This document shows, one piece after another, positions 875-26,332 of a stretch of DNA of 64,000 nt. Below the pieces are notes generated by a model. It was not told the DNA's origin and did not search any database. It saw only the letters and a program-made list of their open reading frames with translations. The position numbers and the translations under genes are program-made. The number at the start of each line of letters is the position of its first letter. Positions within the stretch are counted from its first letter, which is position 1. Origin of the DNA: Lachnospiraceae bacterium (GTDB lineage: Bacteria > Bacillota > Clostridia > Lachnospirales > Lachnospiraceae); assembly GCA_900771955.1 (NCBI GenBank), contig CAAGPW010000167.1:15951-79950 (forward strand), in the 5' to 3' direction.

Positions 875-1039
875 TCGAATTTTCTCTTTCTGTATTTTGG
901 TTTATATTATTATATCGGCAGGATTGGATCAGTGTATGAGAAGCTGTTCCAATTCTTTGTGTATTGCGTGAATCAGTGTATCATTTATAGAAATTGAATG
1001 CAATGGGCGCGTGTTAAATATTACATTATTTTGTCACTT

Positions 1040-1063
1040 AATGGATAATTCTTAGTTATCCAT
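1040..1063. promoter_or_regulatory. 24-bp perfect dyad aatggataattcttagttatccat, about 40 bp upstream of the GT2 start. Candidate operator or recombination site, copy 1.
   Basis: Seen directly. The half-sites atggataa and ttatccat are reverse complements around a 7-bp spacer. A near-identical copy (23/24) lies at 5401-5424 on the other strand. Confidence 0.4.
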
Positions 1064-1102
1064 CAGTTTTAGTACTAGAGGAAACGAGAGGAGAAATTGA
1101 TT

Positions 1103-2077
1103 ATGAAAATAAGTGTAATTATTACGACACACAATACGGAAAAGTATTTATTAAAATGCATGGATTCCATTATGAATCAAACTTTATCAGACATTGAAAT
1201 TATTATTGTAGATGATGCATCTACAGATGATACCCCCAAAACAGCTTCCCAACTGGCCTTGCGACACAAAAACATCAATTTTTTACCTCTATCTGCCAGT
1301 CTTGGTCCCGGGGGAGCAAGAAATAAAGCACTACAGCAGGCCACTGGAGAATACATATCTTTTATCGACAGCGATGACTGGATAGACTTAAATTATCTAG
1401 AGTTAATGTATAAGAAGGCACAAGAGGTAAATGCAGATATTGCTACTTGCAGTTTAATGCGTGAATACGATTATAATACAACTAATCCTATATATAAGTG
1501 TAAATATGATCAGACATATGTACTTTCTGGCGAAATCGCATTTCGTATTATGACAAACGAATATAATTATGGTATAAAATTTTTACCGTCAGCGTTGAAC
1601 AAAATATATCGGAAAACTTTTTTAACTGATAATTCATTAACATTCCCTGAACATATATTTTTTGAGGATCAGCCATTTTCATATAGCTGTACATTGGCTG
1701 CAAACAAAGTGGTCTGTGTTCCACATGTTGTTTATCACCATTATAAACGTTTAGGTTCTATTGTACAGTCATTTAGCAAAAAAAATATAGACGATATGAT
1801 GACTGCATATCAAATGATTAGAAATTACTTGAAAAGAAATAACGTTTATGAAAAATTCCGTTTTAACTATTATTCCTCTTTAGAACATTTTTATAATTTA
1901 ATTGTCCGACAAATATTTGAGTTTATCTCTGACGAAAATACTAAAAAAGATTATCTCAAATACTCTTTCAACCAATTAAAAAATGTTATTGATGTAGAAG
2001 AATATATCGATTTTTTATCTGCAGAAGAATTACGCAAACACATCCAGCCCAATATCACTGATACTACGATATATTAA
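1103..2077 (+). CDS. Family 2 glycosyltransferase (GT-A fold).
   Basis: N-terminus ISVIITTHNTEKYLLKCMDSIMNQTLSDIEIIIVDDASTDDT plus a DSDD (DxD) motif. RBS GAGGAGAA lies 7 nt upstream of the ATG at 1103 (the ORF track starts at the TTG at 1097). GC is very low (about 30%). Confidence 0.8.
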   Translation: MKISVIITTHNTEKYLLKCMDSIMNQTLSDIEIIIVDDASTDDTPKTASQLALRHKNINFLPLSASLGPGGARNKALQQATGEYISFIDSDDWIDLNYLELMYKKAQEVNADIATCSLMREYDYNTTNPIYKCKYDQTYVLSGEIAFRIMTNEYNYGIKFLPSALNKIYRKTFLTDNSLTFPEHIFFEDQPFSYSCTLAANKVVCVPHVVYHHYKRLGSIVQSFSKKNIDDMMTAYQMIRNYLKRNNVYEKFRFNYYSSLEHFYNLIVRQIFEFISDENTKKDYLKYSFNQLKNVIDVEEYIDFLSAEELRKHIQPNITDTTIY

Positions 2078-2088
2078 AAATAGTGTAT

Positions 2089-2123
2089 ATCCGCATGCTA
2101 TCGACTTAATATAGCATGCGGAT
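2089..2123. terminator. Bidirectional intrinsic terminator between the convergent GT2 and STAND genes.
   Basis: Perfect 13-bp stem atccgcatgctat / atagcatgcggat with a 9-nt loop. It has an A-rich 5' flank and a T-rich 3' flank. The stop codon of the minus-strand gene lies in the loop. Confidence 0.6.
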
Positions 2124-5100
2124 GTCTATATAGTATTTTTCTCTTTGAAGAGGATTTCCAATATAGAACTCCAAATTTTTTAGAGAGAATTCATATTGAC
2201 ATATGTATTTTTTATTATGTCTAATAATTGAAAGATATGTTTCCTTTTCAGAAAAAAATCCAGCTTCTCTTTCTAGTTCATTTAAAGCTGCCTCCTTTTT
2301 GTGATTATACAAGTGAACCAATGCTAAATAAGCTGCTTCAAAAGCAAGTTGGCGTGTTTTCATCGGTCTTTGTGTTTTCATATATTCCAATCTATATTGT
2401 TCACACAATGTTATTTCACCTTTGGATAACGCTAAAAGAGATGTCGCAAAAATGTGCCGGTTATAATCGTTGATAAAGTTTTCTTTTAAAATATTATTTG
2501 CTGCAATAACTTCACTAATATCAGAATCGTTGTTAACACAATCTAGGAATGTCACAGCGAACTTATACATATATTTGGTTTTGGTATCGCAATCCACCCT
2601 ATCTTCTACCATAGTATTAAATTTTCTAAGTAATTTTTCAGCCATCTGAAAATTATTTATCAGATTACATAAAAGCAATCTATACGTTGAAAACGGAATA
2701 TCCTTTTGGAAAAAATTCTCCTTTGCAGGAACTTTGTCCAAGCAATTAATTCCATTTTCGCTGTCAACAAACATCTTTACTGTATTTACAGCATATTTTA
2801 ACGATGGAAGGTCCCAATCAAACAGGATTATCCAATTATGTTGAATATTTGTTGGCATTTTATCAAAGCAAGCTATCTTTTCCAAAGCTTCCTGATATTT
2901 ATCATTCTCATAAAGTGAATTGATCATTTCCCATAATATGATGTAACGAATCTCCATCACAATATGCTCTGATACGAGCTTTGCCTCTGAATATAGTTTT
3001 TCAAATAAATCATATCCAGAAAAAGTGGTGCCTGCATTTGTATTTGCATATGTAAAATAAGCAAAAAATAGAAAATAATTTTGTATACTAATGTTCCTTT
3101 TAAACTGCTCTTTGGCAGATTCTGACAAAAAGATATTTTCCAAAATGTAATATATAGAATAATATTTTTGTTCAGCAAACAATTTTTGTATCTTGTTTAA
3201 TACATCCTCTATAGAGTCATCATCTCCACTTTTAAGTTCAAGTTGTAATTTTAAATGGTAAGCATCTTCAAAAGGAATATGTATGTCATTGTATGGTTTC
3301 AAAGTAAAATGGCTAATAAAAATCTCTCGATAGTATTCATGCCAACACACATAGAAATCATCATTATTCTTTCTTATCAATTCAGCATCTAATAGTAAAT
3401 CTAGCGTTTTTCTGGATTGTGGAATATCATGTAATAAGTTTCGTGATATTCCGGATCTGGTATAGTAAATACAAGAGCAAAGGGCTTCTGCATCCTCATT
3501 TTCTTTAAATATATTATTAAATTTAGATATTATTTCATTTTTTAAAAGTTCACAATGAACGAAAGATTGATATGCTAACTTAAAATCGCTGATACTTTTT
3601 ATGGAATCATTTAATGTTGTCAAATATTTCATAAAATACAATACTTCTATTACAGAACCAAAAAGTACTGTAATATGAGTTGTATCGAAATTAGTATACT
3701 TGTTAGTAAGAAGTGTGCGCATATCATCTTTTGTAACGGTTAACTCAACACTATCAAAAAATTGTCTTTTCCCAATTCTGTATTCTTCCAGTGAAATTTT
3801 CTGATGTGATGTCACAATACAAAAAATAGGATATTCACGACTTATTAATAGCCTAAGCATTTCCCTCAATACACCTTTATATTCTTTTGACAATTTTTGA
3901 ATATCATCCAAAATAATAATACGCGTATTTATGCATTTACTATCTAGGAAAATATCTCCCAATAGTTCTGGGTTTTGACTATATTTTACAAAATCATCAA
4001 TTTCCTTTGAGAAAAAAACAAAATCCCAAAATGTTTCTTTTAACTTCGGGAATTTTTTCCTCAAGTCATTTACATAGTTCAAATCTAAGTCTTCAAAATA
4101 TAAATAAGGAAAAAATAAATGAAATATAACTTTTTTGAGTACCTTTATGTCCTCTATTGTATCTCCTTTAAAAACATATATGTTACATAATATATCTTGT
4201 TTTTCTTCCATTAGCCTACTTATAAACAATTGTAGAACATATGATTTTCCGACCCCAGACTTTCCATATATTGAAGTTAATGAGAATATGCAATCAAGAT
4301 TTTTTCTGTAATCTAACAATTTACTGTATAACTGATCAACCACATTATCTTGGGAAGGAATGTCAAAAAACATATTTGCAGAATTTATAATTTTTATGGA
4401 TTGCGCCGGAATGATTTGTATTTTATTTTTATTTCTATTTTGTCCATTCTTATTTACTATTGAATATGTAATGGATATTGGCTGTAAAGTTTTATATTCA
4501 CCAAACGCATCCTTTTTTTGAATAGGTTCATATGTTAAATTCTCAGGTATAATGACATTAAAAATGAGGGGATTAATTCCTTTTTTTAGATGTAATTCCT
4601 TCGCATTTTCTGATATCAATTGAATATTATTCATGTCGGTCAATACGATATCTAAATCGCTTTGTACTGAAATTGAAAAACATATTTCATATTTAGCCCC
4701 AGTATATATAGTAGATAAGGGTTCTTGAAACAAATTATTTCCAAGGGTATAAAATGAAAGTTCTTCTATGCAATTAAATAGTGGTCTTTCTAATTTGTTA
4801 TATGTCTCTAAAGAACAAACAAACTTAGATTTGAAAAAAGCCTCTCCCTTATCCAAAATCCAATTTTCAAGGTGACTTTTGGTATAAAATTTCACCTCCC
4901 TGCAGCTATCAGAACATAATAGTGCTTCACGTATGTCAGCAATTGTTTTTGAAGCTATTTCTAAATTAGTCACAAAAATAATTTTTGAAATACCACGAGA
5001 TAAAATCGCACTTACAATAGTTGCATCCAGGCGATATCTACTTATTATTTTATTTTCAGAAGTATCAGTGGAATATTTAGCTTCCATCCACCAGACATCC

Positions 5101-5312
5101 ACATTGTTTGCATATCCTACAAATACTGCAAACTCTTGTTTTGGTTTTCCCAAAACTTCTCTGGAAAGAATTGCGTCATGATTTCTGTCTCTGCTCTTTT
5201 TTGTCTGTGCCCATTGGGAGCCATTTTGCGGCTCTTTTTCCGCAACAAACTCAACAGCCAATTCTTCAAATCCTTTGAAACCATTTATCAATTTTTCCCA
5301 TTCAATATTCAT
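2106..5312 (-). CDS. STAND-type P-loop NTPase (NACHT/NB-ARC-like) with a possible N-terminal PD-(D/E)xK (Mrr-like) domain and a long C-terminal helical repeat region. Candidate Avs-like antiphage protein.
   Basis: Walker A IYGKSGVGKSYVLQLF at about aa 350. Walker B RIIILDDIQKL at about aa 465. N-terminal ...NHDAIL...FAVFVGYANNVDVWWMEAKY fits a D...ExK nuclease core. About 600 aa of C-terminal alpha-helical repeats. Very AT-rich. Confidence 0.65.
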   Translation of the reverse strand: MNIEWEKLINGFKGFEELAVEFVAEKEPQNGSQWAQTKKSRDRNHDAILSREVLGKPKQEFAVFVGYANNVDVWWMEAKYSTDTSENKIISRYRLDATIVSAILSRGISKIIFVTNLEIASKTIADIREALLCSDSCREVKFYTKSHLENWILDKGEAFFKSKFVCSLETYNKLERPLFNCIEELSFYTLGNNLFQEPLSTIYTGAKYEICFSISVQSDLDIVLTDMNNIQLISENAKELHLKKGINPLIFNVIIPENLTYEPIQKKDAFGEYKTLQPISITYSIVNKNGQNRNKNKIQIIPAQSIKIINSANMFFDIPSQDNVVDQLYSKLLDYRKNLDCIFSLTSIYGKSGVGKSYVLQLFISRLMEEKQDILCNIYVFKGDTIEDIKVLKKVIFHLFFPYLYFEDLDLNYVNDLRKKFPKLKETFWDFVFFSKEIDDFVKYSQNPELLGDIFLDSKCINTRIIILDDIQKLSKEYKGVLREMLRLLISREYPIFCIVTSHQKISLEEYRIGKRQFFDSVELTVTKDDMRTLLTNKYTNFDTTHITVLFGSVIEVLYFMKYLTTLNDSIKSISDFKLAYQSFVHCELLKNEIISKFNNIFKENEDAEALCSCIYYTRSGISRNLLHDIPQSRKTLDLLLDAELIRKNNDDFYVCWHEYYREIFISHFTLKPYNDIHIPFEDAYHLKLQLELKSGDDDSIEDVLNKIQKLFAEQKYYSIYYILENIFLSESAKEQFKRNISIQNYFLFFAYFTYANTNAGTTFSGYDLFEKLYSEAKLVSEHIVMEIRYIILWEMINSLYENDKYQEALEKIACFDKMPTNIQHNWIILFDWDLPSLKYAVNTVKMFVDSENGINCLDKVPAKENFFQKDIPFSTYRLLLCNLINNFQMAEKLLRKFNTMVEDRVDCDTKTKYMYKFAVTFLDCVNNDSDISEVIAANNILKENFINDYNRHIFATSLLALSKGEITLCEQYRLEYMKTQRPMKTRQLAFEAAYLALVHLYNHKKEAALNELEREAGFFSEKETYLSIIRHNKKYICQYEFSLKNLEFYIGNPLQREKYYIDIRMLY

Positions 5313-5400
5313 TCTATATACATACTCCCATTTCCATAAACAATTGAAAAAATACGACTGATATTACGGGATTATCCATTAACGTTCTCAAAGTGAAGTA

Positions 5401-5424
5401 ACGGATAACTAAGAATTATCCATT
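5401..5424. promoter_or_regulatory. Second copy of the 24-bp dyad (aatggataattcttagttatccgt on the minus strand), about 90 bp upstream of the STAND gene start. An extra half-site attatccat lies at 5371-5379.
   Basis: Seen directly. 23/24 identical to the 1040-1063 copy. The AT-rich segment ends at about this position. Confidence 0.4.
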
Positions 5425-5427
5425 ATT

Positions 5428-7230
5428 TTATACTAATTTCGCCGCTAAATTCCGTAAAAATCTTTTCTGTTCCGTCATTTGCTCCCGGGCTATCACTTCA
5501 TCTGTTTTTCTTAACAGTTGACGCCCCTGCTCCAGCAGTTCCGTATTTTCCTGTTCGGCTCCCACTACTCTATAATAAATCACTTGATACAGCAGAGAAT
5601 TGATAACGCCATGCAGTGAAGAACCTTCCATATAATTATTTTTTGCCTGCAGAATATATCTGAGCGCTTCTTCCTTCCGGTCATAAATAAGCAGTTCTAT
5701 AACTCCCAGATTAATATAAGCCACATTGATCTCATCCAGTTCCACTGTATACTGGGCTCCCGCTTCACTAAAGCGCTTCCATAGATCCCATAGATCCTGC
5801 AGTTTTTTTCTATATAAAACTTTGAAAACCTGAAAAAACATACGGCTGCTATATACATATACCGTCAAAATCATTTTTCCAATATGATTTAAAGGAGTAA
5901 TGCAGTCCCAGCCTACGATTTCTTTCGAATCCAACGCCTTAAGCATGTGTTTCCGGTATTTATAGAATTGCAGCCACTCTGTAACTGCCCATCCGTATTT
6001 CTTATCTGCAACCCATTTGTCGGATCTGGCCAGCGCGGTTTTGTTGATATGTACATAAAAATGCTGGATATTCTCCTGCCGGTTTGCTCTGACACAGTTC
6101 TGAAAACCATAGTACCCAAGATATTGATTTGTGCCCTCTGGATCCATCAGGGAGAGTAACCGTTTTGTCCATCCCTCGTCGAATACCTCCTCAGGATTTA
6201 TGCCCAGCAGAAAAAGTGTGGCTAATATGCTTGCCTCTCTGAATTGTTCCGGGTATGGGCGGATGCTTTTCTCCAATCTATCTACCCAGCAAAATTTTTC
6301 TTCCTCTTTTATGTCCTCTTTAGCAATTCTCACAGAGAACAGTTCTGACAATTTCTCAACAAAATGTTCCGTTTGGGCCTTTACCGTATAGTTCTCCGCA
6401 AAACAACCTGTCAGCGTTTTCTCATTACTCCATGGATCCATAATCTCCATCTTATCGTCAAATCCATGCCGCACATAGATTCCCATGGAGGTATTGTTTC
6501 TGGAAATGCTTTGAAAAAAAGGATTTACATCTAAATAATCCCCTCCGCCATATCCTAAAAAAACGAAGCAATGTTTCTTCTGTATCCATCCTCTCAGTGT
6601 CTCCACAAATTGTTGTTTCAAAGGAATCTTTACTGTGGAAAGTGTTGCTCCTATTTTGGCAATATCCGTAGCGATCCCGTGAATATAGTATAGCTGTCCG
6701 CTCCCTGCGAAATCGCTTCGAAAGGTATAGATCCCTTCTCTTTGTTCCTCGTACAGTTCATAACCATCTTCAAAATACAGATTCTTGTACGCCTTCTGGA
6801 TACATATATCATAGTTTGTCGTAACTATATTGGCTCCCAAATGCAGCAGTGCCGCCAACATATAATGACAATAATTCGGTGGTGTCTCCTGAAAACTCTC
6901 CAGACCGTGAATTACCGAATACTGATTTTGTAATTCATCTTTTTCGAAGATGCGGAATCCTTCCAGCACCGTCTCCAGTCTGGGAATTCCCGACAAATAC
7001 ACATTTTCATCCATGATCGTCCGAAAGGTCTCCTGAGACTTCCGCCAGTTTTGCAATATCCTTTCCGTATATTTTATCCCACAGGCCTGCTCCAACAGCG
7101 TTTTCGTAAGTTCATTTCCCAACGGCAAACAGGACGGAGTATTGTTGTCAATTCCGGCTCCCACCCAGAAGACCAGTCCCTCCGTCCCATAGCTACTTAT
7201 TTTTTCAAACAATTCTTTTATCATAAGCAT
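5428..7230 (-). CDS. SIR2_2-family (SIR2-like, ThsA-type NADase fold) domain protein with a roughly 330-aa C-terminal helical domain. Candidate defense effector.
   Basis: Hallmark motifs in order: LVFWVGAGID...LPLGNEL, IVTTNYDICIQ, YYIHG, FVFLGYGGGDYLD. GC is intermediate (about 43%). Confidence 0.65.
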   Translation of the reverse strand: MLMIKELFEKISSYGTEGLVFWVGAGIDNNTPSCLPLGNELTKTLLEQACGIKYTERILQNWRKSQETFRTIMDENVYLSGIPRLETVLEGFRIFEKDELQNQYSVIHGLESFQETPPNYCHYMLAALLHLGANIVTTNYDICIQKAYKNLYFEDGYELYEEQREGIYTFRSDFAGSGQLYYIHGIATDIAKIGATLSTVKIPLKQQFVETLRGWIQKKHCFVFLGYGGGDYLDVNPFFQSISRNNTSMGIYVRHGFDDKMEIMDPWSNEKTLTGCFAENYTVKAQTEHFVEKLSELFSVRIAKEDIKEEEKFCWVDRLEKSIRPYPEQFREASILATLFLLGINPEEVFDEGWTKRLLSLMDPEGTNQYLGYYGFQNCVRANRQENIQHFYVHINKTALARSDKWVADKKYGWAVTEWLQFYKYRKHMLKALDSKEIVGWDCITPLNHIGKMILTVYVYSSRMFFQVFKVLYRKKLQDLWDLWKRFSEAGAQYTVELDEINVAYINLGVIELLIYDRKEEALRYILQAKNNYMEGSSLHGVINSLLYQVIYYRVVGAEQENTELLEQGRQLLRKTDEVIAREQMTEQKRFLRNLAAKLV

Positions 7231-7302
7231 TTTCCTATAAAAACATGTTCTCTGTTATTATAATACTACATCTTTTCCGCTTATGGTCTTTCTATTTATC
7301 GG

Positions 7303-8937
7303 CTATTTCTTTCGTTTTATCGAAATTCGTGGTTTCTCTTCATCTTTCTCTACGCTCAGCCCGTCTCTGGCGCCATAATAAAAGGCAATCCACATCAACG
7401 GAATCGTGATCTGCCCCAGGGTTACCGTCATTTCCGCCATTCCAAAGCATGCAATGGCGATTAGGAATACGGCACACTCCCATCGACCCTTACGGCACAT
7501 TCCCAACGCCTTAATCAGACTGTACAAATACATGCCCAGGAACAAAATTCCCACCGGGATTCCATAGCTGTAGGCCATCTGGAGAAACATATTGTGTGCA
7601 TGCTCATAATAGACGTCTTCCGTCAGGTAGAAGCCAAGAAAGAACCGGTTATGCCCTCTCATATTCAGATGATGCAAGAAATACGTGTAAATAATTTTCC
7701 TTGCATCCGTAGATGAATGCAGCGGATCCAGTCCCTCGATGTTAAATGGATTCTCCGGACTTTCGCCCGCACTCGCCTCCTGCGCATGTACCTTCATACC
7801 GCCCAGCAGATCCTGCATTTTCTCCATCATAACATCCGTATCGATTCCAACGATCTCCAGAATCCGGTTCACATCATGTTCCATTACCTCTTCAAATGAA
7901 ACGTATTTCCAGCTATTCCAAGGGTCAAAGGAGCACACGCTGACACCTTCCACGTATTCCCCCTCAAACCAGATCGGATGGTGCAAAATCGTTGGGAGAT
8001 AGCGGATGCAGCCGTAGACCACCGGAAAAGTGATCGTAATGCAAAGAATCATTGCCACACCATGGATCACCAGCCTGTAAAAAGATTTACAGCAAAAAAT
8101 ATCATACGCTACCATCAGAAAGAACCCCGTAACGATCACGCCGAGCAGCGGAGCTCGTCCACCGGTATAGACAATAAAGCTGACCATTCCCGCCGACATC
8201 AAAAAATAGAAACCCCGGATCCACCATTTTTTCTTCTGTTCCACGGCCTTCCTCCACCGGAGTAAAAAGGCACAAAATACAATCATATAAAATAATCCGT
8301 TCTGCGTGGTTCCGGTGTACATGCCCCGATACCGCACGGCATCGTACGGCCGGAATCCAAAGGCCAGGATCTGCTGAATGAAAAACCATACGATAAGTCC
8401 GATGGTCATTCCATTGAATAAATCCTCCGTTCGCTCTTCCGGTATCCCGATCAGGTAAAGTCCGCCGAAGACCAGCAGATACCATAGCGGCAAAATACCG
8501 CCATACACCGATATCTGCATCAGAAAGAACAGCAACACCATACACCAGAAAAACGGCTGTCGCATCTTCTTCCGGATCGCCATTTTCTCGTTCTTACGCT
8601 CTCTGACCATATAGATGATCAGATAACTCCACACCGTCAGATTCAGTACTCCAGAGATCCACTGCCCCGTGTATTTCCAGCAGAACTTTCCCACCACACA
8701 TGCCGCCACTGTCAGCAGTGCGCATACCGGAGTCCAGCGTAAATACACCTTCTCCCGAAATTTGCTCAGATCCATTCCAGGAAGCAGCATAAATGCAATG
8801 ACTACCCCCGTCAGATTTGCAAATATCATCTGTATTTGTCCCAGCGCGCTTCCCCGGCGCTGATCGATCCAGCCCAATACCAGAAAACATACCATGTACC
8901 AGAGAATGTATTTATTCGTCTTCAACCATTGTTTCAT
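7303..8937 (-). CDS. O-antigen ligase/Wzy_C-family polytopic membrane protein with a periplasmic loop domain.
   Basis: About 10 TM helices, with the segment FLQMAYSYGIPVGILFLGMYLYS and a large soluble loop. RBS AAAGGAG lies upstream of the ATG at 8937 (MKQWLK...). The ORF track starts further upstream at 9021. Confidence 0.55.
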   Translation of the reverse strand: MKQWLKTNKYILWYMVCFLVLGWIDQRRGSALGQIQMIFANLTGVVIAFMLLPGMDLSKFREKVYLRWTPVCALLTVAACVVGKFCWKYTGQWISGVLNLTVWSYLIIYMVRERKNEKMAIRKKMRQPFFWCMVLLFFLMQISVYGGILPLWYLLVFGGLYLIGIPEERTEDLFNGMTIGLIVWFFIQQILAFGFRPYDAVRYRGMYTGTTQNGLFYMIVFCAFLLRWRKAVEQKKKWWIRGFYFLMSAGMVSFIVYTGGRAPLLGVIVTGFFLMVAYDIFCCKSFYRLVIHGVAMILCITITFPVVYGCIRYLPTILHHPIWFEGEYVEGVSVCSFDPWNSWKYVSFEEVMEHDVNRILEIVGIDTDVMMEKMQDLLGGMKVHAQEASAGESPENPFNIEGLDPLHSSTDARKIIYTYFLHHLNMRGHNRFFLGFYLTEDVYYEHAHNMFLQMAYSYGIPVGILFLGMYLYSLIKALGMCRKGRWECAVFLIAIACFGMAEMTVTLGQITIPLMWIAFYYGARDGLSVEKDEEKPRISIKRKK

Positions 8938-9095
8938 GTTACAATGCTCCTTTAGTGCCACTTTGAGTTTCAATGTAGAATACATATTTATGTTATATGT
9001 AAGAAATCCTTTTGAAAACATCTTGTTTTTTTATTTTTTTTTGCTATTCTTTTATAAGTAGGCAATAGTATGGTGTCACGGGAGATTAATATACC

Positions 9096-9938
9096 TTGAA
9101 TATATCTGAAGAGAAAGAAATAATTGCATCGGCCCAGTCTATCGACTGTCCGGCGGAAGCGCATAAAGAACTCATAAACCTGCTGTGGTCCGAGCACAGT
9201 AGCTTTATAGCGGGACAGGTTTCGCATTTTTTCCGCAATAGTAATTATTGCGATTATGCAGACATCTATCAGGAATCCTTTCTCACTTTTTATGACGTCG
9301 TAATGAAATTTGATATTTCCCGAAACAATCGTCTGCGGACAGCCTTACTGCTGCCGCTCCATCATACGTTTTATCAATATATCAGTCGGGAAAACGGCCG
9401 TACCATTCACGAGAATCAGATGGTAACTCATTTTCAGGTTGTATTGGATCGTTACGGACTTACCGGTCAGGAGGATCTGGAGATTCTGACCCAATACTAT
9501 AACCTGACCTATCCTGCCAGTCCGATCACTGCAAAATCCATGTTCAAATACCGCCAATATTACCTGATGGGTTACAAAACCTCTCTGGATACAGTTGCGT
9601 ATGAATTCATGCCGGACGATTTCTCCGTCGAAAATCATATCGCATTACACGACACCAGAGAACAGTTACAGAAATGCATAACTGCTTTCAAAAAAACGGA
9701 ACAGCAATCACTGCTGCTGTTTTTGTTTCGCTTAAGCGATCATATCACACTGAATGGAATTCATTACGGAAATGATTTAAAGCATTTTCCCAAAAAACAA
9801 TTTAAGTGTTCTCTGGATAAACTGTTGCCAAGATTATTGAATGTTATGTACCAGAACGGATTGATTACAGAGAAATCCATGGAGGAATTTTATTTCTTTT
9901 TAGAAAGTTATTATGCCGATATACAGGCCGCGGGGTAG
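9096..9938 (+). CDS. Hypothetical protein, possibly a sigma-70/ECF-like regulator.
   Basis: Weak region-2-like DIYQESFLTFYDVV and region-4-like segments. TTG start in the ORF track. Confidence 0.3.
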   Translation: MNISEEKEIIASAQSIDCPAEAHKELINLLWSEHSSFIAGQVSHFFRNSNYCDYADIYQESFLTFYDVVMKFDISRNNRLRTALLLPLHHTFYQYISRENGRTIHENQMVTHFQVVLDRYGLTGQEDLEILTQYYNLTYPASPITAKSMFKYRQYYLMGYKTSLDTVAYEFMPDDFSVENHIALHDTREQLQKCITAFKKTEQQSLLLFLFRLSDHITLNGIHYGNDLKHFPKKQFKCSLDKLLPRLLNVMYQNGLITEKSMEEFYFFLESYYADIQAAG

Positions 9939-9964: not shown

Positions 9965-10243
9965 CTATTCGATGGAAAAAACACTCATCAGCAGTCTAAA
10001 CCTTTCATCTGAAAGCTGATCTTTCTCCGCAAGATTGGAAACCAATCTCAAGATCTCCATTTTTTCACTATGTCGCATCATTTCTACCTGCATTTTGGCT
10101 TGATAAAGAAGTTCGCGGTTATTAGGCGCACTCAGCAATTTTTTTAAGATTCCACCCAAACCATATGAAATTGGTACAATAGCTCCATACAACCTCTCCA
10201 TCCCAACCTCCTCATAATTTGCATCTATAATTTCCTTTGCCAT
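9965..10243 (-). CDS. Small hypothetical protein.
   Basis: ORF present. Shares an AEKxQLS(D/E)E motif with the overlapping neighbour, suggesting duplication. Confidence 0.3.
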   Translation of the reverse strand: MAKEIIDANYEEVGMERLYGAIVPISYGLGGILKKLLSAPNNRELLYQAKMQVEMMRHSEKMEILRLVSNLAEKDQLSDERFRLLMSVFSIE

Positions 10244-10484
10244 CTTCGTGTATCCTCTCTTTCAAGTGCATTTTCAAGAAAATTTCACATTTTTCTTCGG
10301 ATAACTGTCCTTTTTCTGCCAGCAATATTGCACATTGGATCATCTTCTTGCGCAGTTGCCTCTCCTGTTGCTCCTTCCACATAATATATTCCCATTCCTG
10401 ATCAGCTCCATTGATTGCCCTTTTACTAAAACAAAACGTATTCCCCCCCTTCTTTAAAATAGCTTCCGTCGGTTGCGGTATCAT
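10212..10484 (-). CDS. Small hypothetical protein (paralogous motif to 9965-10243).
   Basis: ORF present. Contains LLAEKGQLSEEKCEIF. Confidence 0.3.
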   Translation of the reverse strand: MIPQPTEAILKKGGNTFCFSKRAINGADQEWEYIMWKEQQERQLRKKMIQCAILLAEKGQLSEEKCEIFLKMHLKERIHEDGKGNYRCKL

Positions 10485-11119
10485 CTGTATCCCTCCATTT
10501 CCAGGAGACCAACCATGATATTTACATTGTGTTGCTCGTTGCTGTTCAATTCCTCATACGAAACATTTCTCCACTTTCCTTTCATCTGCGCATACCATTC
10601 CTTAGCCTCAAATGTGCGAGCCATCTCTCCTCCTTTTTCGAACGCTTGTCCATGTAATGCGTATATATAATTGATATAAAATTGCAGGATCCTGACGTCC
10701 CCTCGTCCCTGCGCCTGTTGATAAACTTCGTCTTCTGTCAGGCACTCGGTTATACATCTCTCTATAAACAGCTCGTCCGTATCATAGGTTTGTCCCTGAT
10801 CTACTACCACCTTCTTTTCTTTTTTATCCTCTTCTATTTGGACATTTTTCTCTTGTGTGTGGCCGAGCATCTTTTCATCGCTTAAAGAAGCCACGATCTC
10901 AAATACCAGCAAGATAGCGGCCAGTAATAACAGTACCATGAAGCAAATTCTTACTAAATTTGCCCCAATTCGTCGGAGTTTTCTCATGTTAAAAGCCAGA
11001 TATTCTGTCTCGTACAAGGCCTTCTCTTTCGTTGCCAGATCATATTGTCTTCTTCTTACATAAACAATACTTTGCTTTCGCCAATTTTTCTGGTTCTCTA
11101 CAGTACAGGAATAATCCAT
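10481..11119 (-). CDS. Single-pass membrane protein with an extracytoplasmic YARHG-like domain.
   Basis: One TM helix (ICFMVLLLLAAILLVFEIV). C-terminal NYIYALHGQAF matches the YARHG motif. Confidence 0.45.
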   Translation of the reverse strand: MDYSCTVENQKNWRKQSIVYVRRRQYDLATKEKALYETEYLAFNMRKLRRIGANLVRICFMVLLLLAAILLVFEIVASLSDEKMLGHTQEKNVQIEEDKKEKKVVVDQGQTYDTDELFIERCITECLTEDEVYQQAQGRGDVRILQFYINYIYALHGQAFEKGGEMARTFEAKEWYAQMKGKWRNVSYEELNSNEQHNVNIMVGLLEMEGYR

Positions 11120-11288
11120 ATTCCACCTCCGATTTCTTGAAACCCTATTTTCTCTTGTTCCTACACCTCATATTTATGATAATGCCAATTAGATTATTCC
11201 ACAATTATTACTTTTTATTACAAATTATTCCAAAAATATGCAATTTGCATTACCTGTATACGACTAGATATCTAAATAATATACAAAG

Positions 11289-11341: not shown

Positions 11342-12435
11342 TTATTCTTTTTGATCTTTATAGTATCCTCGTGATATCAATAATTGCCTTACTGTATCAT
11401 CAAGCTTTTTACTGACTTTGTTATATCTATTTTTTAAGGCTTTATCCCTTATAACAGATATATATTCGGGTATTTTTTTCTTATCATCCACAAGTTCTGT
11501 GATACTTCGAATCAAATTTTCCTTAAATTCATAAACGCTTTTGGGCGTAATCTGTTTTTTCAATTGCTCTAATATCTCCTGCGGAATCAATTCCTCCTTT
11601 TCCAAAGACTCCATATCTTCTTCACTTAAGATAATATCAGAGCAATTCATATTTAACATGGGCAGAATTAACTTTAAGTCTTCCTCTTTCAATTGCTGCC
11701 TTGAAAAAAACATTCTATGCACTGTCGGATAATGGCTTTCTCCAGCAGACACTGTCAGCACTTCTGCCATGCGACAATCCAATGGTGTTTTATTTAAATA
11801 TATATGTCGAAATGCCAAGAAACAAATTTCACTTAATTTATTACTTTTTAAAATGCAGTAACAACTCTGTAACCGATTCGATACGATAAGTGATCCCTCA
11901 TAATTTTTGCAGAAACTTCTGGCCGCAGGATCCTGTTTAGACGGGACATTAAGTTCCACGCTAACAGTATAGTCTGCAGAATCATCAGAGATTTTCATGA
12001 TACCCGTCAAAACATTTTTTTCAGAAGAAATAGTAGGGTATAAATAACAGTAATAAGTGCCTACATAACCATTAAATGCCTGATGATTTATATCCGTTAT
12101 TAATCCCTCCTGCGCAAGATCAAAATTACTTTTCAAATTATTAATAGAGAGTTTGTTTCCTTTTCCTCTTGCCACTTCTTGCAGATCTTGTGTAACCAAC
12201 TCCTCCAAGGAAACGTCAAAAATTTCACAGCACTTTATTAAAAACGGAATCGAACAATAATTGCCCTCCGAACCATTTACATATTTGGAAATCGTTCCCT
12301 GATTAATTTCCAAATCGTGTTCTTCCATTACCCTTCTTAAATGATTTTGACTATACCCGTCCCGTTTCATAAGGTAATTTAAATTCTTTGAAATCTTTTT
12401 GTTAAATTCTTTTTTCTTCTCTAACAAACTTGACA
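11342..12435 (-). CDS. XRE-family helix-turn-helix transcriptional regulator with a C-terminal domain of unknown function.
   Basis: HTH segment GYSQNHLRRVMEEHDLEINQGTISKYVNG. RBS AAGGAG lies 9 nt upstream of the ATG at 12435 (MSSLLEKKKEF). Confidence 0.7.
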
Positions 12436-12656
12436 TAATTTTTCTTCTCCTTATCATACGCAGTTCTCTCGCCACTTATATATTACAAGAAGTTACGGTC
12501 AAATAATTCTTCAACTGAGCTTTAAAAGTTCCAGCTTCCATCCCAGCCCCCTTTCGTACTTTCCTTTTATCCTTTAGATAAATGAGTGTTTTAATATTTC
12601 CTCTTTTACTTTGAATTCTTATGTATATGATACTATACTTTTCACTATTATTACAT

Positions 12657-21478: not shown

Positions 21479-22528
21479 TTATGTCGCAGCCTTCATAGCC
21501 TTTTCCTGTTTTGCACGTACTCTGTCATGCTTTGCCATGATCTCTACCAGTTCCGCATAGGTCGTCTTCTGCGGATTCCATCCCAGAACTGATTTCGCCT
21601 TCGTCGGATCTCCCCACAAATTATCCACATCCGTAGGCCGGAACCATTCCGGATTCACACATACCAGCATCCTGCCGGTAGCCTTATCATAGCCCTTTTC
21701 ATTGACACCGCTGCCTTCCCAGCGGATCTCGATGCCATTGGCACGGAAAGCACGCTCTGTAAAGTCTCTCACAGAATGCTGTTCTCCGGTAGCAATTACA
21801 AAATCCTCCGGTGTATCATGCTGTAAGATCATCCACATGCACTCTACATAATCCTTCGCATACCCCCAGTCACGCAGGGAATCCATGTTGCCCAGCTCCA
21901 GATGGTCCTGCAGGCCTTCCGCAATGCGTCCGGCTGCCAGAGTGATCTTTCTGGTAACGAAGTTCTCTCCGCGTCTCTCGGACTCATGGTTAAAGAGGAT
22001 ACCGTTTACTGCGAACATGCCATAGGCCTCGCGGTATTCCTTGGTGATCCAGAAGCCGTACTGCTTGGCTACCGCATAGGGGCTGTAGGGATGGAACGGG
22101 GTAGTCTCTCTCTGGGGCACTTCCTCCACCTTGCCATACAGTTCTGAAGTAGATGCCTGATAGAATTTGGTGTGTTCTGCCAGTCCCAGCATGCGGACTG
22201 CTTCCAGAATTCTCAGTACACCGATGGCATCCACATCTCCGGAATACTCCGGTACATCGAAGGATACCTGCACATGGGACTGTGCTGCCAGATTATATAT
22301 CTCATCCGGTCTTACCTGCGCCACAATGTTCGTAATGGACGCTGTGTCTGACAGATCTCCGTCATGGAGAGTGATGGCGCCGCGGGCAATGAGGTGGTCG
22401 ATACGTGCCGTGTTGGAAATAGATGCTCGGCGGGTGATTCCATGAACCTCATATCCCTTCTCCAGCAGAAACTCTGCCAGATAAGAACCATCCTGTCCTG
22501 TAATACCTGTAATAAGTGCTTTCTTCAT
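21479..22528 (-). CDS. gmd: GDP-mannose 4,6-dehydratase.
   Basis: [31 protein letters not shown] and the rest of the sequence are a canonical Gmd. Confidence 0.9.
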
Positions 22529-22628
22529 TTCAATCTCCGATCTGCTTATATATCACTTGAAAATAATACTCTTGCTTAAAATAATAACCTATTTTAAGTA
22601 ATATGGCAAGATTGAGCTTGCAAAAAAC

Positions 22629-24080
22629 CTATTCCAATCCATAGCTTTTTACAATTACCTGGAATTCCACAGATCTGGAGAAGCCCTCCAATACGGTCAT
22701 ACGATCCATACCGGCATCAAGGTTTCCTACCCAGTAGGCTTTTCCGGCGGCATCGGAAGCACGGTCCATAAAGGTCTGGTACAGTGTTTCCACATAATCG
22801 CTGTTGTTCAGCCTGCGGTTGATGAATTCCTCGGACTGGAAGAAGTTCTTCGCTGCATCCTCCGGTGTGATCTCCTTGTTGGCAATCCGTCTGGACCAGT
22901 AGGTGATTCCATCTTCTTCACCCTCTCTGTTCAGTGCCTTGTTATACAGACGCTTTACAAAATTACGGATTCCTTCGGTGATCCGGGGAACTGCTGTCTC
23001 TCCGTTGGTATCCATCGTGCCACGGATAATACCGTATCTGTTGCACAGATTGGTAAACTCCTCAGAATTTACAAATCCACAGAGTACAAAGTGTCTGGAA
23101 TTACCGCTCTCCAATGCTTCCATCCAGTCATTCTTTCCGGATTCGTCCGGTTCTCTGTCAAAAAAAGTACGATATAAGGTATCTACATACTCGCTGTTAC
23201 CGAGCTTTCGTGCAGCAAACTCATCACTTTCAATAAATCCGTTGGAAATACCGGCTCCATCGCAGAGTCCCAGAAGCAGGCGGTTGGTCCAGTCATGCAG
23301 TCCTTTTGCTTCTGCCTGACGTCCCAGTGCCTTACTGTACATTCTGCCCACAAAACCCTCTACATTATCCACATCCGCGCTGAAGGAATAAAACGTTGTA
23401 TTTCCGTTGTTCGTAACATACCAGGTAACACGGTTGTTGATGATCTCCGGCTTACAATCGGAAAGCTGGCCTTTGATCTGCTGCACATCTCCCAACAGAT
23501 TGCCGTTTCCGTCTACAAATGCCACCTTCACAACCTGATGATCATCTTCATTAAAATAGTAAGAGCCCTCTTTCACAGCCTCCTCCCAGAGGATCGCATA
23601 GTAGTCATCCGCTACCTTCACAAGCTGCGTATTCGATGCACTGTAAATACCACCTTCCTGATATTGTGAGATCAGATGATAGTTCATACTGCTGTCATCC
23701 AACTGGTCTTTGGGAACTGTTATAGTCAGACGATTTCCACTTTTGTCATACAGAGTTACCAACACTTCCAATCCACCGGTATAGTCTACGGTATAATAAG
23801 TGCCATTCTCTCCCGCTACAATATAAGATGTAACTACAGTTGCACAGACTCCACTGTAATTCTGTGCATGTGCATTGTCACCATTATAGTTTCTGCCATA
23901 GACAAGATTCTCCTCTGTCTCCAACGTTTCTGTACTTTCATAGGGAATACTGCCATCTTCGGCTGCCGTAACCGCTGCATGCACCTGTCCCAGTGATCCT
24001 GCCGGAAGCAGTCCCACAATCAGAGTTGCGGTCATTACACCTGCGATTCTGCTGCTGTTTTTTAACCATTTTCTCCTCAT
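22629..24080 (-). CDS. Secreted protein with an N-terminal domain of unknown function and two C-terminal DUF4214-like repeat units.
   Basis: Signal peptide. C-terminal repeats of type FVKRLYNKALNREGEEDGITYW...FQSEEF / YVETLYQTFMDRASDAAGKAYW...FSRSVEF. Confidence 0.6.
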   Translation of the reverse strand: MRRKWLKNSSRIAGVMTATLIVGLLPAGSLGQVHAAVTAAEDGSIPYESTETLETEENLVYGRNYNGDNAHAQNYSGVCATVVTSYIVAGENGTYYTVDYTGGLEVLVTLYDKSGNRLTITVPKDQLDDSSMNYHLISQYQEGGIYSASNTQLVKVADDYYAILWEEAVKEGSYYFNEDDHQVVKVAFVDGNGNLLGDVQQIKGQLSDCKPEIINNRVTWYVTNNGNTTFYSFSADVDNVEGFVGRMYSKALGRQAEAKGLHDWTNRLLLGLCDGAGISNGFIESDEFAARKLGNSEYVDTLYRTFFDREPDESGKNDWMEALESGNSRHFVLCGFVNSEEFTNLCNRYGIIRGTMDTNGETAVPRITEGIRNFVKRLYNKALNREGEEDGITYWSRRIANKEITPEDAAKNFFQSEEFINRRLNNSDYVETLYQTFMDRASDAAGKAYWVGNLDAGMDRMTVLEGFSRSVEFQVIVKSYGLE

Positions 24081-24393
24081 TTTCGTAAGCGCCAAATATT
24101 CCCGTGGCTAGCCAAAAACCCCCTCTAAAAAATACACTTTTCATTGCCTGCGCCATACCTTTGCCACCAGATGTATTGCTCATGGACTCAATTATAAGGT
24201 CGTCAGCGAACTTCTGGGACACAGCACGATCAATATTACTTTGAATATGTATGTTCATCCACAGATGTCTGAAAAATAAAAGTGCATTGAAACGATATAT
24301 ATGGAATAGATGGAAATATACAAATATATGGAAAAATATGGTATATTATGAAAAAACTGTTGTCGAAATAAAGTCGCAATTTTCTGTCAAATA

Positions 24394-24423
24394 TTGACAT
24401 TAGAATTATGCTGAAGGTATAAT
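24394..24423 (+). promoter_or_regulatory. Sigma-A type promoter for the rfbFGH-wzx-glf operon.
   Basis: TTGACA (24394-24399), an 18-nt spacer, then TATAAT (24418-24423). Strong RBS GGAGGAAACAA before the ATG at 24488. Confidence 0.45.
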
Positions 24424-24487
24424 ACAAGGAGCTAATCTTTAATCATCAAGAACAAAGTTCTTACAAATACACTTACGGAGGAAACAA

Positions 24488-25267
24488 ATGAAAGTAGTTG
24501 TGTTAGCAGGGGGATATGGTACCCGCATCAGTGAAGAAAGTCAATTCAAACCCAAGCCTATGATCGAGATCGGCGGAAAGCCTATCCTGTGGCATATCAT
24601 GAAGGAATACTCCTCCTATGGTTTTGATGAATTTATTATTTGTGCCGGTTACAAACAGCACTACATTAAAGAATGGTTTGCTGATTATTACCTATATAAC
24701 AGTGATGTAACATTTGATTTCACGAACAAAAACAGAATGACCATCCACAATAATGTGTCCGAACCCTGGAAAGTAACCATTGTCGATACCGGATTGAATA
24801 CCATGACCGGCGGTCGTATCAAGCGGATTCAGCCCTATGTTGGAAATGAAGATTTCCTGTTAACTTACGGTGATGGTGTTGCTGATGTGAATATTGCTAA
24901 AACGGTAGAGTTCCACAAGCAGCATGGGAAAATAGCAACCCTGACTGCCGTTCATGTGGAACAGCGATTTGGCGTATTGGATATCGACAGAGAAGACCTG
25001 ACAGTTAAGGCTTTCCGTGAAAAATCCATAGCGGACGGTTCCCGAATCAATGCCGGATATATGGTATTAAAACCGGAGGTTTTCAACTATATCGAGGGAG
25101 ACAGCACAGTATTTGAGCAGGAGCCTCTTCGCAGACTGGCAGAGGAAGGCCAGTTGAAGGCGTACAAACATAACGGCTACTGGCAGTGCATGGATACCAA
25201 ACGTGAAATGGAGAAGCTGGAAGAACTCTGGGCTTCCGGTAAGGCTCCCTGGAAAACATGGGAATAA
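24488..25267 (+). CDS. rfbF: Glucose-1-phosphate cytidylyltransferase.
   Basis: MKVVVLAGGYGTRISEESQFKPKPMIEIGGKPILWHIM is canonical RfbF/DdhA. Confidence 0.85.
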   Translation: MKVVVLAGGYGTRISEESQFKPKPMIEIGGKPILWHIMKEYSSYGFDEFIICAGYKQHYIKEWFADYYLYNSDVTFDFTNKNRMTIHNNVSEPWKVTIVDTGLNTMTGGRIKRIQPYVGNEDFLLTYGDGVADVNIAKTVEFHKQHGKIATLTAVHVEQRFGVLDIDREDLTVKAFREKSIADGSRINAGYMVLKPEVFNYIEGDSTVFEQEPLRRLAEEGQLKAYKHNGYWQCMDTKREMEKLEELWASGKAPWKTWE

Positions 25268-25279
25268 GGGGAAAGTGAC

Positions 25280-26332
25280 ATGGATTTGGAATTTTTCAAA
25301 GGTAAAAAAGTGTTGGTCACGGGACATACAGGATTCAAAGGATCCTGGCTGTCTCTGATCCTCAGCAATGCCGGTGCGGAGGTAACAGGGTATTCCCTGG
25401 AGCCTCCTACTTCGCCGTCTCTTTTTGCGTTATGCGGTTTAGCCTCCCGTATGCATTCCGTTATCGGAGATATCCGGGATCTGGAACATCTGAAACAGGT
25501 CTTTGCCGAGGTACAGCCGGAGATCGTACTGCATCTTGCGGCACAGCCAATCGTACGGGACTCCTATAAAGACCCGGTCTACACCTATGAGACGAATGTC
25601 ATGGGAACCGTCAACATTTGTGAATGTGTCCGTCTGAATCCCTGCGTGAAATCCTTCCTGAATGTAACAACGGATAAGGTATATCACAACAACGAATGGG
25701 AATGGGGCTATCGTGAGAATGAACCGTTGGATGGCTTTGATCCCTATTCTAACAGTAAATCCTGTTCGGAGCTGGTGACCCACAGCTATATCAATTCTTT
25801 CTTTAATGATATGGATGTCGCAGTGTCTACTGCCCGTGCAGGTAATGTTATAGGCGGCGGTGATTTTGCAAATGACCGCATTATTCCGGATTGTGTTCGC
25901 GCGGCTATCGATCATAAAGATATCATTGTCCGGAACCCACATTCCACGAGACCTTACCAGCATGTGCTGGAGCCTCTTGCCATTTACCTGACAATCGCAC
26001 AGGCGCAGTATGAGGATAAATCCAGGGCAGGATTCTACAATGTAGGACCGGATGACTGCGATTGTGTTACTACAGGGAAGTTGGTAGATTTGTTCTGTGA
26101 AAAATGGGGAGAAGACATTCGATGGGTCAACCGTTACGACGGAGGTCCTCACGAGGCGAACTTCCTGAAACTGGATTGCTCCAAGATCAAGAGAACCTTT
26201 GGATGGACTCCCCGCTGGGGCGTGGCAGATGCCGTGGAAAAGACCGTGGAGTGGTCCAAGGTCTATCGTGATGGCGGCGATATCACAGCATGTATGGAAC
26301 AGCAGATTGCAGAATTTTTTGAAAGGAATTAA
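25280..26332 (+). CDS. rfbG: CDP-glucose 4,6-dehydratase.
   Basis: KKVLVTGHTGFKGSWLSLIL, and YSNSKSCSE containing the catalytic YxxxK. Confidence 0.85.
   Translation: MDLEFFKGKKVLVTGHTGFKGSWLSLILSNAGAEVTGYSLEPPTSPSLFALCGLASRMHSVIGDIRDLEHLKQVFAEVQPEIVLHLAAQPIVRDSYKDPVYTYETNVMGTVNICECVRLNPCVKSFLNVTTDKVYHNNEWEWGYRENEPLDGFDPYSNSKSCSELVTHSYINSFFNDMDVAVSTARAGNVIGGGDFANDRIIPDCVRAAIDHKDIIVRNPHSTRPYQHVLEPLAIYLTIAQAQYEDKSRAGFYNVGPDDCDCVTTGKLVDLFCEKWGEDIRWVNRYDGGPHEANFLKLDCSKIKRTFGWTPRWGVADAVEKTVEWSKVYRDGGDITACMEQQIAEFFERN

Follow-up and report, generated by a model that had tools for sequence, protein, structure and literature searches.

The G segment of phage Mu, inverted by Gin, and the C segment of phage P1, inverted by Cin, are multi-kilobase segments between short inverted repeats, in which opposed gene sets are read from outside and next to which the invertase gene is located. 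The pdif modules of Acinetobacter plasmids are gene modules that lie between inverted Xer-type sites and occur in different contexts. Defence genes can also be diversified by inversion, as is described in two reports on the Type I restriction-modification hsdS invertons (pneumococcal SpnIII/ivr, CreX/PsrA), where a tyrosine recombinase acts between inverted repeats (PMC7672463, PMC7096588). Furthermore, a GT4 glycosyltransferase has been linked to a STAND NTPase in predicted counter-invader systems (Kaur et al. 2021, PMC8195603), and recombinases have been found to mark defence loci, with the speculation that inversion may regulate them, in a paper that does not describe cassettes of the kind reported below (PMC13552941). 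A 2026 survey of antiviral STAND (Avs) proteins, which covers at least 90 STAND families, mentions neither recombinases, inversion nor glycosyltransferases in the portion of its text that is available (PMC13581612). A search of the literature for invertible STAND/glycosyltransferase cassettes and for recombinase-bounded defence cassettes returned no description, nor was one found in the inversion surveys checked, and the public accessions of the family members appear in no searchable paper. In this paper, we have analysed a gene encoding a STAND nuclease of 1068 aa (2106..5312, minus strand, ATG start) in a stretch of 64,000 nt, hereafter the window, from Lachnospiraceae bacterium (GCA_900771955.1, contig CAAGPW010000167.1, 15,951-79,950 of the forward strand), together with the invertible and exchangeable two-gene cassette of which this gene forms one arm.

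The cassette spans 4387 bp from one inverted-repeat arm to the other (1039..5425); its limits are given by the repeat pair and by the limits of identity to two other loci, L009 and L010. Its G+C content is low (approximately 0.29-0.33), as is that of the whole patch holding the STAND gene (0.29-0.33), versus 0.40-0.52 across most of the window. The second arm of the cassette is a glycosyltransferase gene of the GT2 family with a GT-A fold (1097..2077, plus strand, 326 aa, with the ATG at 1103 as its likely true start), which converges on the STAND gene and lies 28 bp from its stop codon. The repeat arm on the GT2 side occupies 1039..1068, with the core GGATAATTCTTAGTTATCC at 1043-1061, and the arm on the STAND side occupies 5396..5425, with the core at 5403-5421, 2 nt after the stop codon of an upstream SIR2-like gene. 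The two arms share a perfect 23-nt sequence, TAATGGATAATTCTTAGTTATCC, in which 8-bp palindromic arms (ATGGATAA and TTATCCAT) surround the asymmetric 7-bp spacer TTCTTAG; this layout is that of a tyrosine-recombinase core site, and the core is present exactly twice in the 64-kb window.

The same organization recurs in other genomes. A locus scan with one genome per species returned 41 loci, hosted by Lachnospiraceae, Waltera, Oscillospiraceae, Desulfosporosinus, Paenibacillus, Streptococcus mitis and suis, Christensenella, and metagenome-assembled genomes (MAGs) labelled Cloacimonadota or Bacteroidetes, and 39 of these loci were analysed. A convergent GT2 partner was present in 37 of the 39, the two exceptions being a truncated contig and a degenerate copy, and in each context fetched (Paenibacillus, Clostridiales Family XIII, Lachnospiraceae and a Clostridium MAG) the partner was an approximately 325-aa GT2 that converged on the STAND gene and lay 5-30 bp from its stop codon. 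The pairwise identities of the ATPases and of the GT2 proteins co-vary (Pearson 0.93 over 276 locus pairs); therefore, the two genes are inherited as a unit. The longest inverted repeat of each locus brackets exactly the STAND/GT2 gene set, and after a wider search repeats with GATAA..TTATC-type cores were found to flank the pair in 34 of the 39 loci. A tyrosine recombinase similar to XerC/D, of about 300-315 aa, adjoins the cassette in 24 of the 29 loci with usable flanks, on the side of the STAND arm in 11 and on that of the GT2 arm in 13, and its sequence varies independently of the cassette (Spearman about 0).

Comparison of genomes has shown that cassettes of this family are both inverted and exchanged. 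When the locus of S. mitis BCC17 (L041) was compared with those of two other Streptococcus genomes (L042 and L043), the cassette aligned forward at 99.3-99.4% identity, and both flanks were swapped and reverse-complemented at 91-95%, with the breakpoints within the 30-nt repeat. A corresponding case with different cargo is given by L065 and L078, where the flanks align forward at 99.5% and the cassette is inverted at 99.9%. Exchange is visible in L009 and L010, whose identity to the window (99.4%) is confined to 1040-5421 and whose flanks are unrelated, and in L011, L012 and L004, which carry the cassette at 91-95%, again between unrelated flanks. Conversely, the identity between L099 and the window (97.7%) runs across the SIR2-like gene and reaches into the core (7343..5399), beyond which L099 carries different cargo that is 100% identical to the 3.84-kb cassette of L096; different samples therefore hold different cassettes at the window's own chromosomal position. 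L065 and L091 likewise have common flanks and different cargo. Thus one cargo occurs between unrelated flanks, one pair of flanks holds different cargoes, and the boundaries fall at the sites, as in an exchangeable module. For an inverted copy of the window cassette, the recombinant junctions predicted are ...GTATAAAATAATGGATAATTCTTAGTTATCCATCAGTTTTAGTACTAG from the SIR2 flank to GT2 and ...TTTTGTCACTTAATGGATAATTCTTAGTTATCCGTTACTTCACTTTGAG from the left flank to the STAND gene.

Several further observations concern the sites and the recombinase. About 25 nt inside the STAND-side arm of the window there is an extra half-site, TAATGGATAAT (5371..5381, minus strand), which was read from the sequence and is possibly an accessory binding site of the recombinase. 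Many contigs from MAGs and from the Sequence Read Archive start and stop exactly in the repeats, at a cassette length of 4.3-5.5 kb, which is the expected output of an assembler at repeats or at inversion boundaries. L010 itself stops within the cores; this would agree with heterogeneity of orientation but does not prove it. In L040 (5458-12682) there are three core sites, and the cassette is surrounded by two long duplications in inverted orientation, of about 380 nt and 440 nt, which suggests a multi-site, shufflon-like arrangement instead of a simple two-site inverton. In the window, 24124-24276 (plus strand) was weakly aligned by tblastn, over 39-47 aa and with 34-46% identity, to the catalytic region at the C-terminus of the cassette-associated recombinases; it contains no intact open reading frame (ORF) and may be a recombinase remnant.

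The STAND protein belongs to a family that is small and sharply delimited. A word-indexed search of 5.8 billion proteins gave 166 relatives, of which most are full length (~1030-1068 aa) and very few carry an annotation. When 1.84 billion cluster representatives were searched exhaustively with a profile, 334 clusters (50% identity) were obtained at E<=1e-3 and 179 at E<=1e-30. Because these 334 clusters are nearly all 1020-1080 aa long, with close to one architecture throughout, the gene encodes a conserved protein and is no chance ORF. Residue conservation was scored in a 50-sequence alignment reaching down to 23% identity. Walker A (G350-K-S-G-V-G-K356-S) has invariant G355 and K356, with almost no variation at G350, S352 and G353; Walker B (I465-I-I-L-D469-D) has an invariant D469, and R464, which precedes this motif, is nearly invariant. 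The most conserved stretch of the whole protein is the N-terminal D...ExK nuclease pattern, the invariant set of this region comprising D42, N44, D46, W74-W-M-E77-A-K79-Y-S81, R92, D96, T98, F113, T115 and N116; the nuclease is the best conserved domain, and the remaining domains diverge fast. As a separate observation, one 897-aa cluster of the family (P0007) represents 2421 member sequences, every contig of which is <=4.3 kb; because of this membership, the cassette type must be very common in public sequencing runs, where it is habitually assembled as an isolated contig of cassette length.

A confident AlphaFold2 (AF2) model of the protein computed from the alignment reached a mean predicted local distance difference test (pLDDT) of 84.6 and a predicted template modelling score (pTM) of 0.72, and a further AF2 model, likewise confident, reached a pLDDT of 80.2. 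The model consists of an alpha/beta domain (aa 1-165), an all-beta domain (179-310), a P-loop NTPase (319-525), a helical plus winged-helix part (528-670, with helices at 528-642 and a beta-hairpin at 646-656) and repeats (684-1040), the last ~540 aa of the protein being helical. The N-terminal domain (4818..5312, minus strand) matches Mrr-type nuclease folds, that of Avs4 among them, and its catalytic D46, E77 and K79 form a D...(D/E)xK set on an alpha-beta-beta-beta-alpha-beta core, as in Mrr-like PD-(D/E)xK nucleases. It is followed by the all-beta sandwich domain (4383..4778, minus strand), by the STAND NTPase core with its helical domain and winged helix (aa 319-670; 3303..4358, minus strand; Walker A at 350-357 and Walker B at 465-470), and by the TPR-like helical repeats (2193..3263, minus strand; pLDDT mostly 85-95), which are the presumed sensor. 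In the winged-helix region H658 is nearly invariant in the alignment and is probably an MHD-like residue. Foldseek searches against the PDB gave the STAND-TPR protein 6mfv as the best match (E 3e-8), which is also evidence for the repeat region, and Avs4 (7e-7), with further matches to SAMD9, CED-4, EfAvs5, MalT, NLRP9 and NRC2. The order of NTPase, helical domain, winged helix and repeats is that of the STAND superfamily, and the folds match those of known STANDs in both the AF2 model and Foldseek.

At the level of sequence models the protein is far less visible. Pfam Mrr_cat (PF04471) falls below its gathering score for aa 13-120 (E 0.042, 14.4 bits versus a cut-off of 21), the AAA_22, AAA_16 and ATPase_2 matches at aa 345-509 are all sub-threshold, NCBIfam gave nothing relevant, and a search of the PDB by sequence and profile returned no solved Avs and only marginal P-loop matches to TnsC, Cdc6 and Rab. 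One relative, P0028, passes the gathering score of AAA_16 (33.8 versus 32.6), with nSTAND_NTPase5 and NACHT sub-threshold. The original prediction for ORF 2106-5312 had recognized its Walker A and Walker B motifs, a D...ExK pattern compatible with an Mrr/PD-(D/E)xK nuclease, and a long helical C-terminal part, and had allowed for an extra domain in the long N-terminal region; the motifs have proved conserved, the helical part and the extra domain (the beta sandwich) are both seen in the AF2 model, and the structure prediction that it had proposed as a check found the P-loop STAND fold as well as the Mrr-type nuclease fold. Its Avs-like tripartite reading holds for the domains and for the STAND fold, but the gene is not a complete system, being half of a two-gene cassette. 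On the strength of this fold and of the catalytic residues, and with its activity presumed by analogy with Avs4, the protein would be an Avs-like immune sensor-nuclease.

The GT2 partner is readily recognized by Pfam (Glycos_transf_2, E 3.5e-36, 125.1 bits versus a gathering score of 23.3), and no NCBIfam equivalog is reached at its cut-off. Its closest solved relatives are 3bcv, GalT1, TarS (5e-22), TarP and SpsA, and the characterised enzymes to which it is most similar decorate cell-wall glycopolymers that act as phage receptors. The enzyme arm varies in content: longer cassettes carry a second glycosyltransferase adjoining GT2, and in another variant a GT2-like or radical-SAM gene on the GT2 strand stands back-to-back with the STAND start (~13 nt apart in L020). 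The extra glycosyltransferase of L035 matches Pfam GT4-conflict. In L011, a locus whose strong flank promoter faces GT2, the GT2 gene is split into two overlapping ORFs by an apparent frameshift (10239-11263), which could be a pseudogene, an assembly error or slippage.

The packing of the cassette bears on how its genes are transcribed. The convergent genes are 5-30 bp apart and packed without terminators, and in the L020/L030 variant, where the enzymes are all encoded opposite to the strand of the STAND gene, there is almost no intergenic space. The repeat itself carries a ribosome-binding site in Streptococcus, and a ribosome-binding site, the ATG and the first codons in Paenibacillus. Because the cassette has little or no room for promoters of its own, transcription would come from the flanks. 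In 9 of the 20 loci scored one flank carries a top-percentile promoter, never both flanks, at 28-38 nt before the repeat (86 nt in L027); in L004 it is TTGAAA-N18-TGnTATAAT before the STAND arm, and in L011 it is a TATAAT before GT2, the opposite flank carrying the recombinase gene and a terminator hairpin. In the window, no terminator-like site was found between the SIR2-like gene and the STAND gene, and the STAND arm, which faces the SIR2-like gene, is probably read through from there. We favour, with some uncertainty, the view that orientation would set which arm receives the stronger flank promoter.

Taken together, these data lead us to the reading that an Avs-type sensor-nuclease forms one arm of an invertible, exchangeable two-gene cassette with orientation-dependent expression, which we consider to have about an even chance of being correct. 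By analogy with Avs4, the C-terminal helical repeats would bind a phage-derived ligand, the STAND NTPase would oligomerise with ATP, and the Mrr-type nuclease domains would then cut DNA, aborting the infection. The glycosyltransferase arm stands tail-to-tail on the opposite strand, sometimes with a second glycosyltransferase or a radical-SAM enzyme. The Xer-like recombinase would invert the cassette in place and permit the exchange of whole cassettes between loci with the same site pair, and transcription from the flanks would enter the cassette, so that its orientation would assign to each arm the promoter of one flank. The SIR2-like neighbour in the window and the immune-type genes in and around the related cassettes described below speak for the immune part of this reading.

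A number of results weigh against this reading. No strong consensus promoter was found on either flank in 11 of the 20 loci, and promoter-like sites in the window are at chance level, no commoner than in shuffled sequence. In Paenibacillus both arms carry the same promoter-like, ribosome-binding and ATG sequence, and because the signals are identical, inversion may not change expression there. Only one orientation is on record for the window's own locus, both being recorded for family members. Since the window gives no match to the HMM of the cognate recombinase, the enzyme would have to act on this cassette in trans. The HMM and PADLOC searches that the original prediction had named as a check gave a divided answer: the window protein stays below the Pfam thresholds and matches no PADLOC v2 model (AVAST types) other than mad8 at E 0.018, and the relative P0028 does pass that of AAA_16. 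Moreover, the assignment of GT2 to surface glycans draws solely on its nearest solved homologues, and the cassette was not found in the phage or plasmid collections searched.

The most serious rival, which we regard as doubtful, takes the pair as a two-component immune module that is neutral to orientation: the STAND nuclease and the glycosyltransferase would act jointly and would always be co-expressed, from promoter elements within or at the inverted repeats, the glycosyltransferase would be a co-effector or regulator (for instance glycosylating an invader molecule or marking self), and the sites would serve mobility, with flipping as a by-product. The strict pairing and co-variation of both genes across phyla, the directly documented exchange of cassettes and the Paenibacillus repeat, which supplies both genes with the same -35/-10-like elements, ribosome-binding site and ATG, would all suit such a module. 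The sister cassettes described below also look like a sensor plus an enzyme (a STAND-TPR protein in which no effector domain is recognisable with an SHMT-like one, and TIR with a kinase-like protein), and the effectors predicted in fusions with STAND NTPases include GT4 domains (PMC8195603), the extra glycosyltransferase of L035 having a match to Pfam GT4-conflict. However, with 5-30 bp between the stops and no terminator, two inward promoters would collide over the whole cassette; several loci have a strong promoter on one flank only and a terminator on the other (L011); and the L020/L030 arrangement, in which enzymes on one strand oppose a lone STAND gene with ~13 nt between the starts, fits strand selection better.

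That the cassette is a phase-variable switch of surface glycosylation, which toggles the glycosyltransferase with the large protein as its regulator or as a housekeeping ATPase, is improbable. The richness of the window in surface-polysaccharide genes, the resemblance of the GT2 arm to enzymes of the TarS/TarP type and the frequent control of surface structures by invertons of gut bacteria, as stated in one report (PMC11892184), speak for it, but the invariant Mrr D/E/K residues, the full STAND core and the fast-diverging repeats are the signature of an immune STAND, unlike that of regulators, and TIR and STAND-TPR genes occur in sister cassettes on the same platform. It is also improbable that the STAND gene is a self-contained single-gene Avs, with the glycosyltransferase, the repeats and the recombinase as incidental neighbours in a defence island. 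Its effector-NTPase-sensor layout is indeed as complete as that of Avs4, which works alone; yet the GT2 gene is convergent and abutting in 37 of 39 loci across Bacillota and MAGs labelled Bacteroidetes and Cloacimonadota, the inverted repeats bracket exactly the pair, and the cassette boundaries are the homology limits between contexts. We give least credence of all to the nuclease-ATPase being the cassette's own mobility machinery, in the manner of the Tn7-type TnsA nuclease and TnsC AAA+ regulator. The cassette is mobile and the best PDB sequence-profile matches of the protein are TnsC and Cdc6, marginal as they are (E 0.0065-0.016), but these matches cover the Walker A region only, the folds group with STAND/NLR proteins, the ends are tyrosine-recombinase core sites with a cognate recombinase, and unrelated cargo moves on the same sites.

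The sites are indeed used by other cargo. The exact 19-nt core GGATAATTCTTAGTTATCC was found in 47 metagenome stretches (L052-L098), one high-G+C locus included, none of which (0 of 47) encodes this ATPase or its GT2, and in about 20 of which a recombinase of the same family abuts the site. The core is a remarkably conserved recombination site with many different cargoes, and wherever two inverted cores occur among these stretches, two convergent genes lie between them. A pentapeptide-repeat protein is partnered either by an ATP-grasp/radical-SAM protein or by a protein without assigned function. The other pairs consist of a methyltransferase and a protein that is weakly GNAT-like, of two proteins without assigned function (185 and 413 aa), of a TIR protein and a P-loop kinase-like protein (L091), and of an SHMT-family enzyme and an NTPase of the KAP/AAA_16 type that has TPR repeats (L096). 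This cargo is rich in immune-type domains, and the STAND/GT2 pair would be one cassette type on a general flip-and-swap platform; PADLOC gave no match for any of the sister-cassette proteins. Tentatively, and with somewhat less than even confidence, we propose a widespread undescribed platform in which an Xer-like tyrosine recombinase and a conserved GGATAA-N7-TTATCC core would flip convergent two-gene defence cassettes and swap them between genomes, as an integron-like analogue for immune genes, and in which orientation would select the expressed strand, leading to clonal populations with mixed immune and surface states. Around these cassettes, AAA_21 and TIR genes were seen near the STAND/GT2 cassette of L002; in L096 a KwaB-like (Kiwa) gene lies directly outside the cassette (7705-8682), with the recombinase 1.6 kb from the site, in a defence-island context; and in L091 a 413-aa ORF between the convergent TIR and kinase-like genes (1386-2627) has the appearance of an insertion sequence-type transposase.

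In the window, the SIR2-like gene (5428..7230, minus strand, 600 aa; Pfam SIR2_2, E 2.7e-7), whose product has a helical C-terminal half, lies outside the cassette and is co-directional with the STAND gene. Its product belongs to a small unannotated family with 30 matches, had no PADLOC match and returned no record in an exact look-up; in other genomes a HamA-domain gene comes after it, pointing to a separate, predicted defence pair of the SIR2-HamA type. We considered it as a functional partner of the STAND gene (SIR2+STAND) and rejected this, as it is absent from every other locus fetched, is located outside the cassette, and elsewhere pairs with the HamA-domain gene. Just upstream of it, 7303-9021 encodes a 572-aa multi-pass membrane protein without a Pfam match. 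Within a few kb of the cassette there are also a sigma-70 region-2-like protein, as a weak match (9096-9938, plus strand), and an HTH_26/Cro-C1-type regulator with a long C-terminal extension (11342-12475, minus strand). The genes at 21479-26332 (dehydratase-, nucleotidyltransferase- and epimerase-like) resemble those of surface-polysaccharide biosynthesis, as judged by their sequence, and because such genes are nearby, the cassette sits in a cell-surface glycan region.

If confirmed, these results would establish a new family of Avs-like proteins that is common among Lachnospiraceae of the gut and streptococci of the mouth and has a nuclease most similar to restriction enzymes of the modification-dependent kind. 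They would also show that an immune sensor acting inside the cell is genetically linked, in an obligate manner, to a glycosyltransferase. This link bears on the choice between glycosylation as an immune effector and surface glycosylation as a first line coordinated with abortive infection. A further consequence would be that genes of the defence type can be packaged by tyrosine-recombinase sites into cassettes that flip and swap. This would help explain why defence genes at fixed chromosomal positions turn over rapidly and why contigs of cassette length are so numerous in metagenome assemblies, and the 19-nt core would provide a simple sequence handle for finding more cargo.

Among known systems, the STAND protein resembles Avs4 (EcAvs4; PDB 8dgf) in its Mrr-type nuclease fold and its STAND fold, but it is shorter (1068 versus ~1540 aa), carries a beta sandwich between nuclease and NTPase, has no membership of that family at the sequence level, and is always paired with a convergent glycosyltransferase in a cassette bounded by recombinase sites. 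The glycosyltransferase of the systems predicted by Kaur et al. is a GT4 domain of GT-B fold fused as an effector, in a report that mentions neither recombinase nor inversion (PMC8195603), whereas the present one is a separate GT-A gene of the GT2 family on the opposite strand from a STAND gene that already has a nuclease effector. In the hsdS invertons it is the domains of a single specificity gene that are shuffled; in the present cassette the unit holds entire genes, unrelated to each other and on opposite strands, and is exchangeable as well. With respect to the other recombinase-bounded segments, the cassette departs from each in a different way. The Mu G and P1 C segments use serine invertases and swap variants of one tail-fibre function, whereas here there are an Xer-like tyrosine recombinase, arms of unrelated function and the exchange of whole cassettes between loci. 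The pdif modules depend on the host XerC/D and on dif-like 28-bp sites, are plasmid-borne and carry mostly resistance genes, in contrast to a chromosomal cassette (no plasmid match) with usually a dedicated recombinase, a GGATAA-N7-TTATCC core and always a convergent gene pair. The locus thus combines known kinds of elements, namely an Avs-like STAND protein with recombinase-driven inversion and cassette exchange, and there is a good chance that it represents a new platform for the packaging of defence genes.

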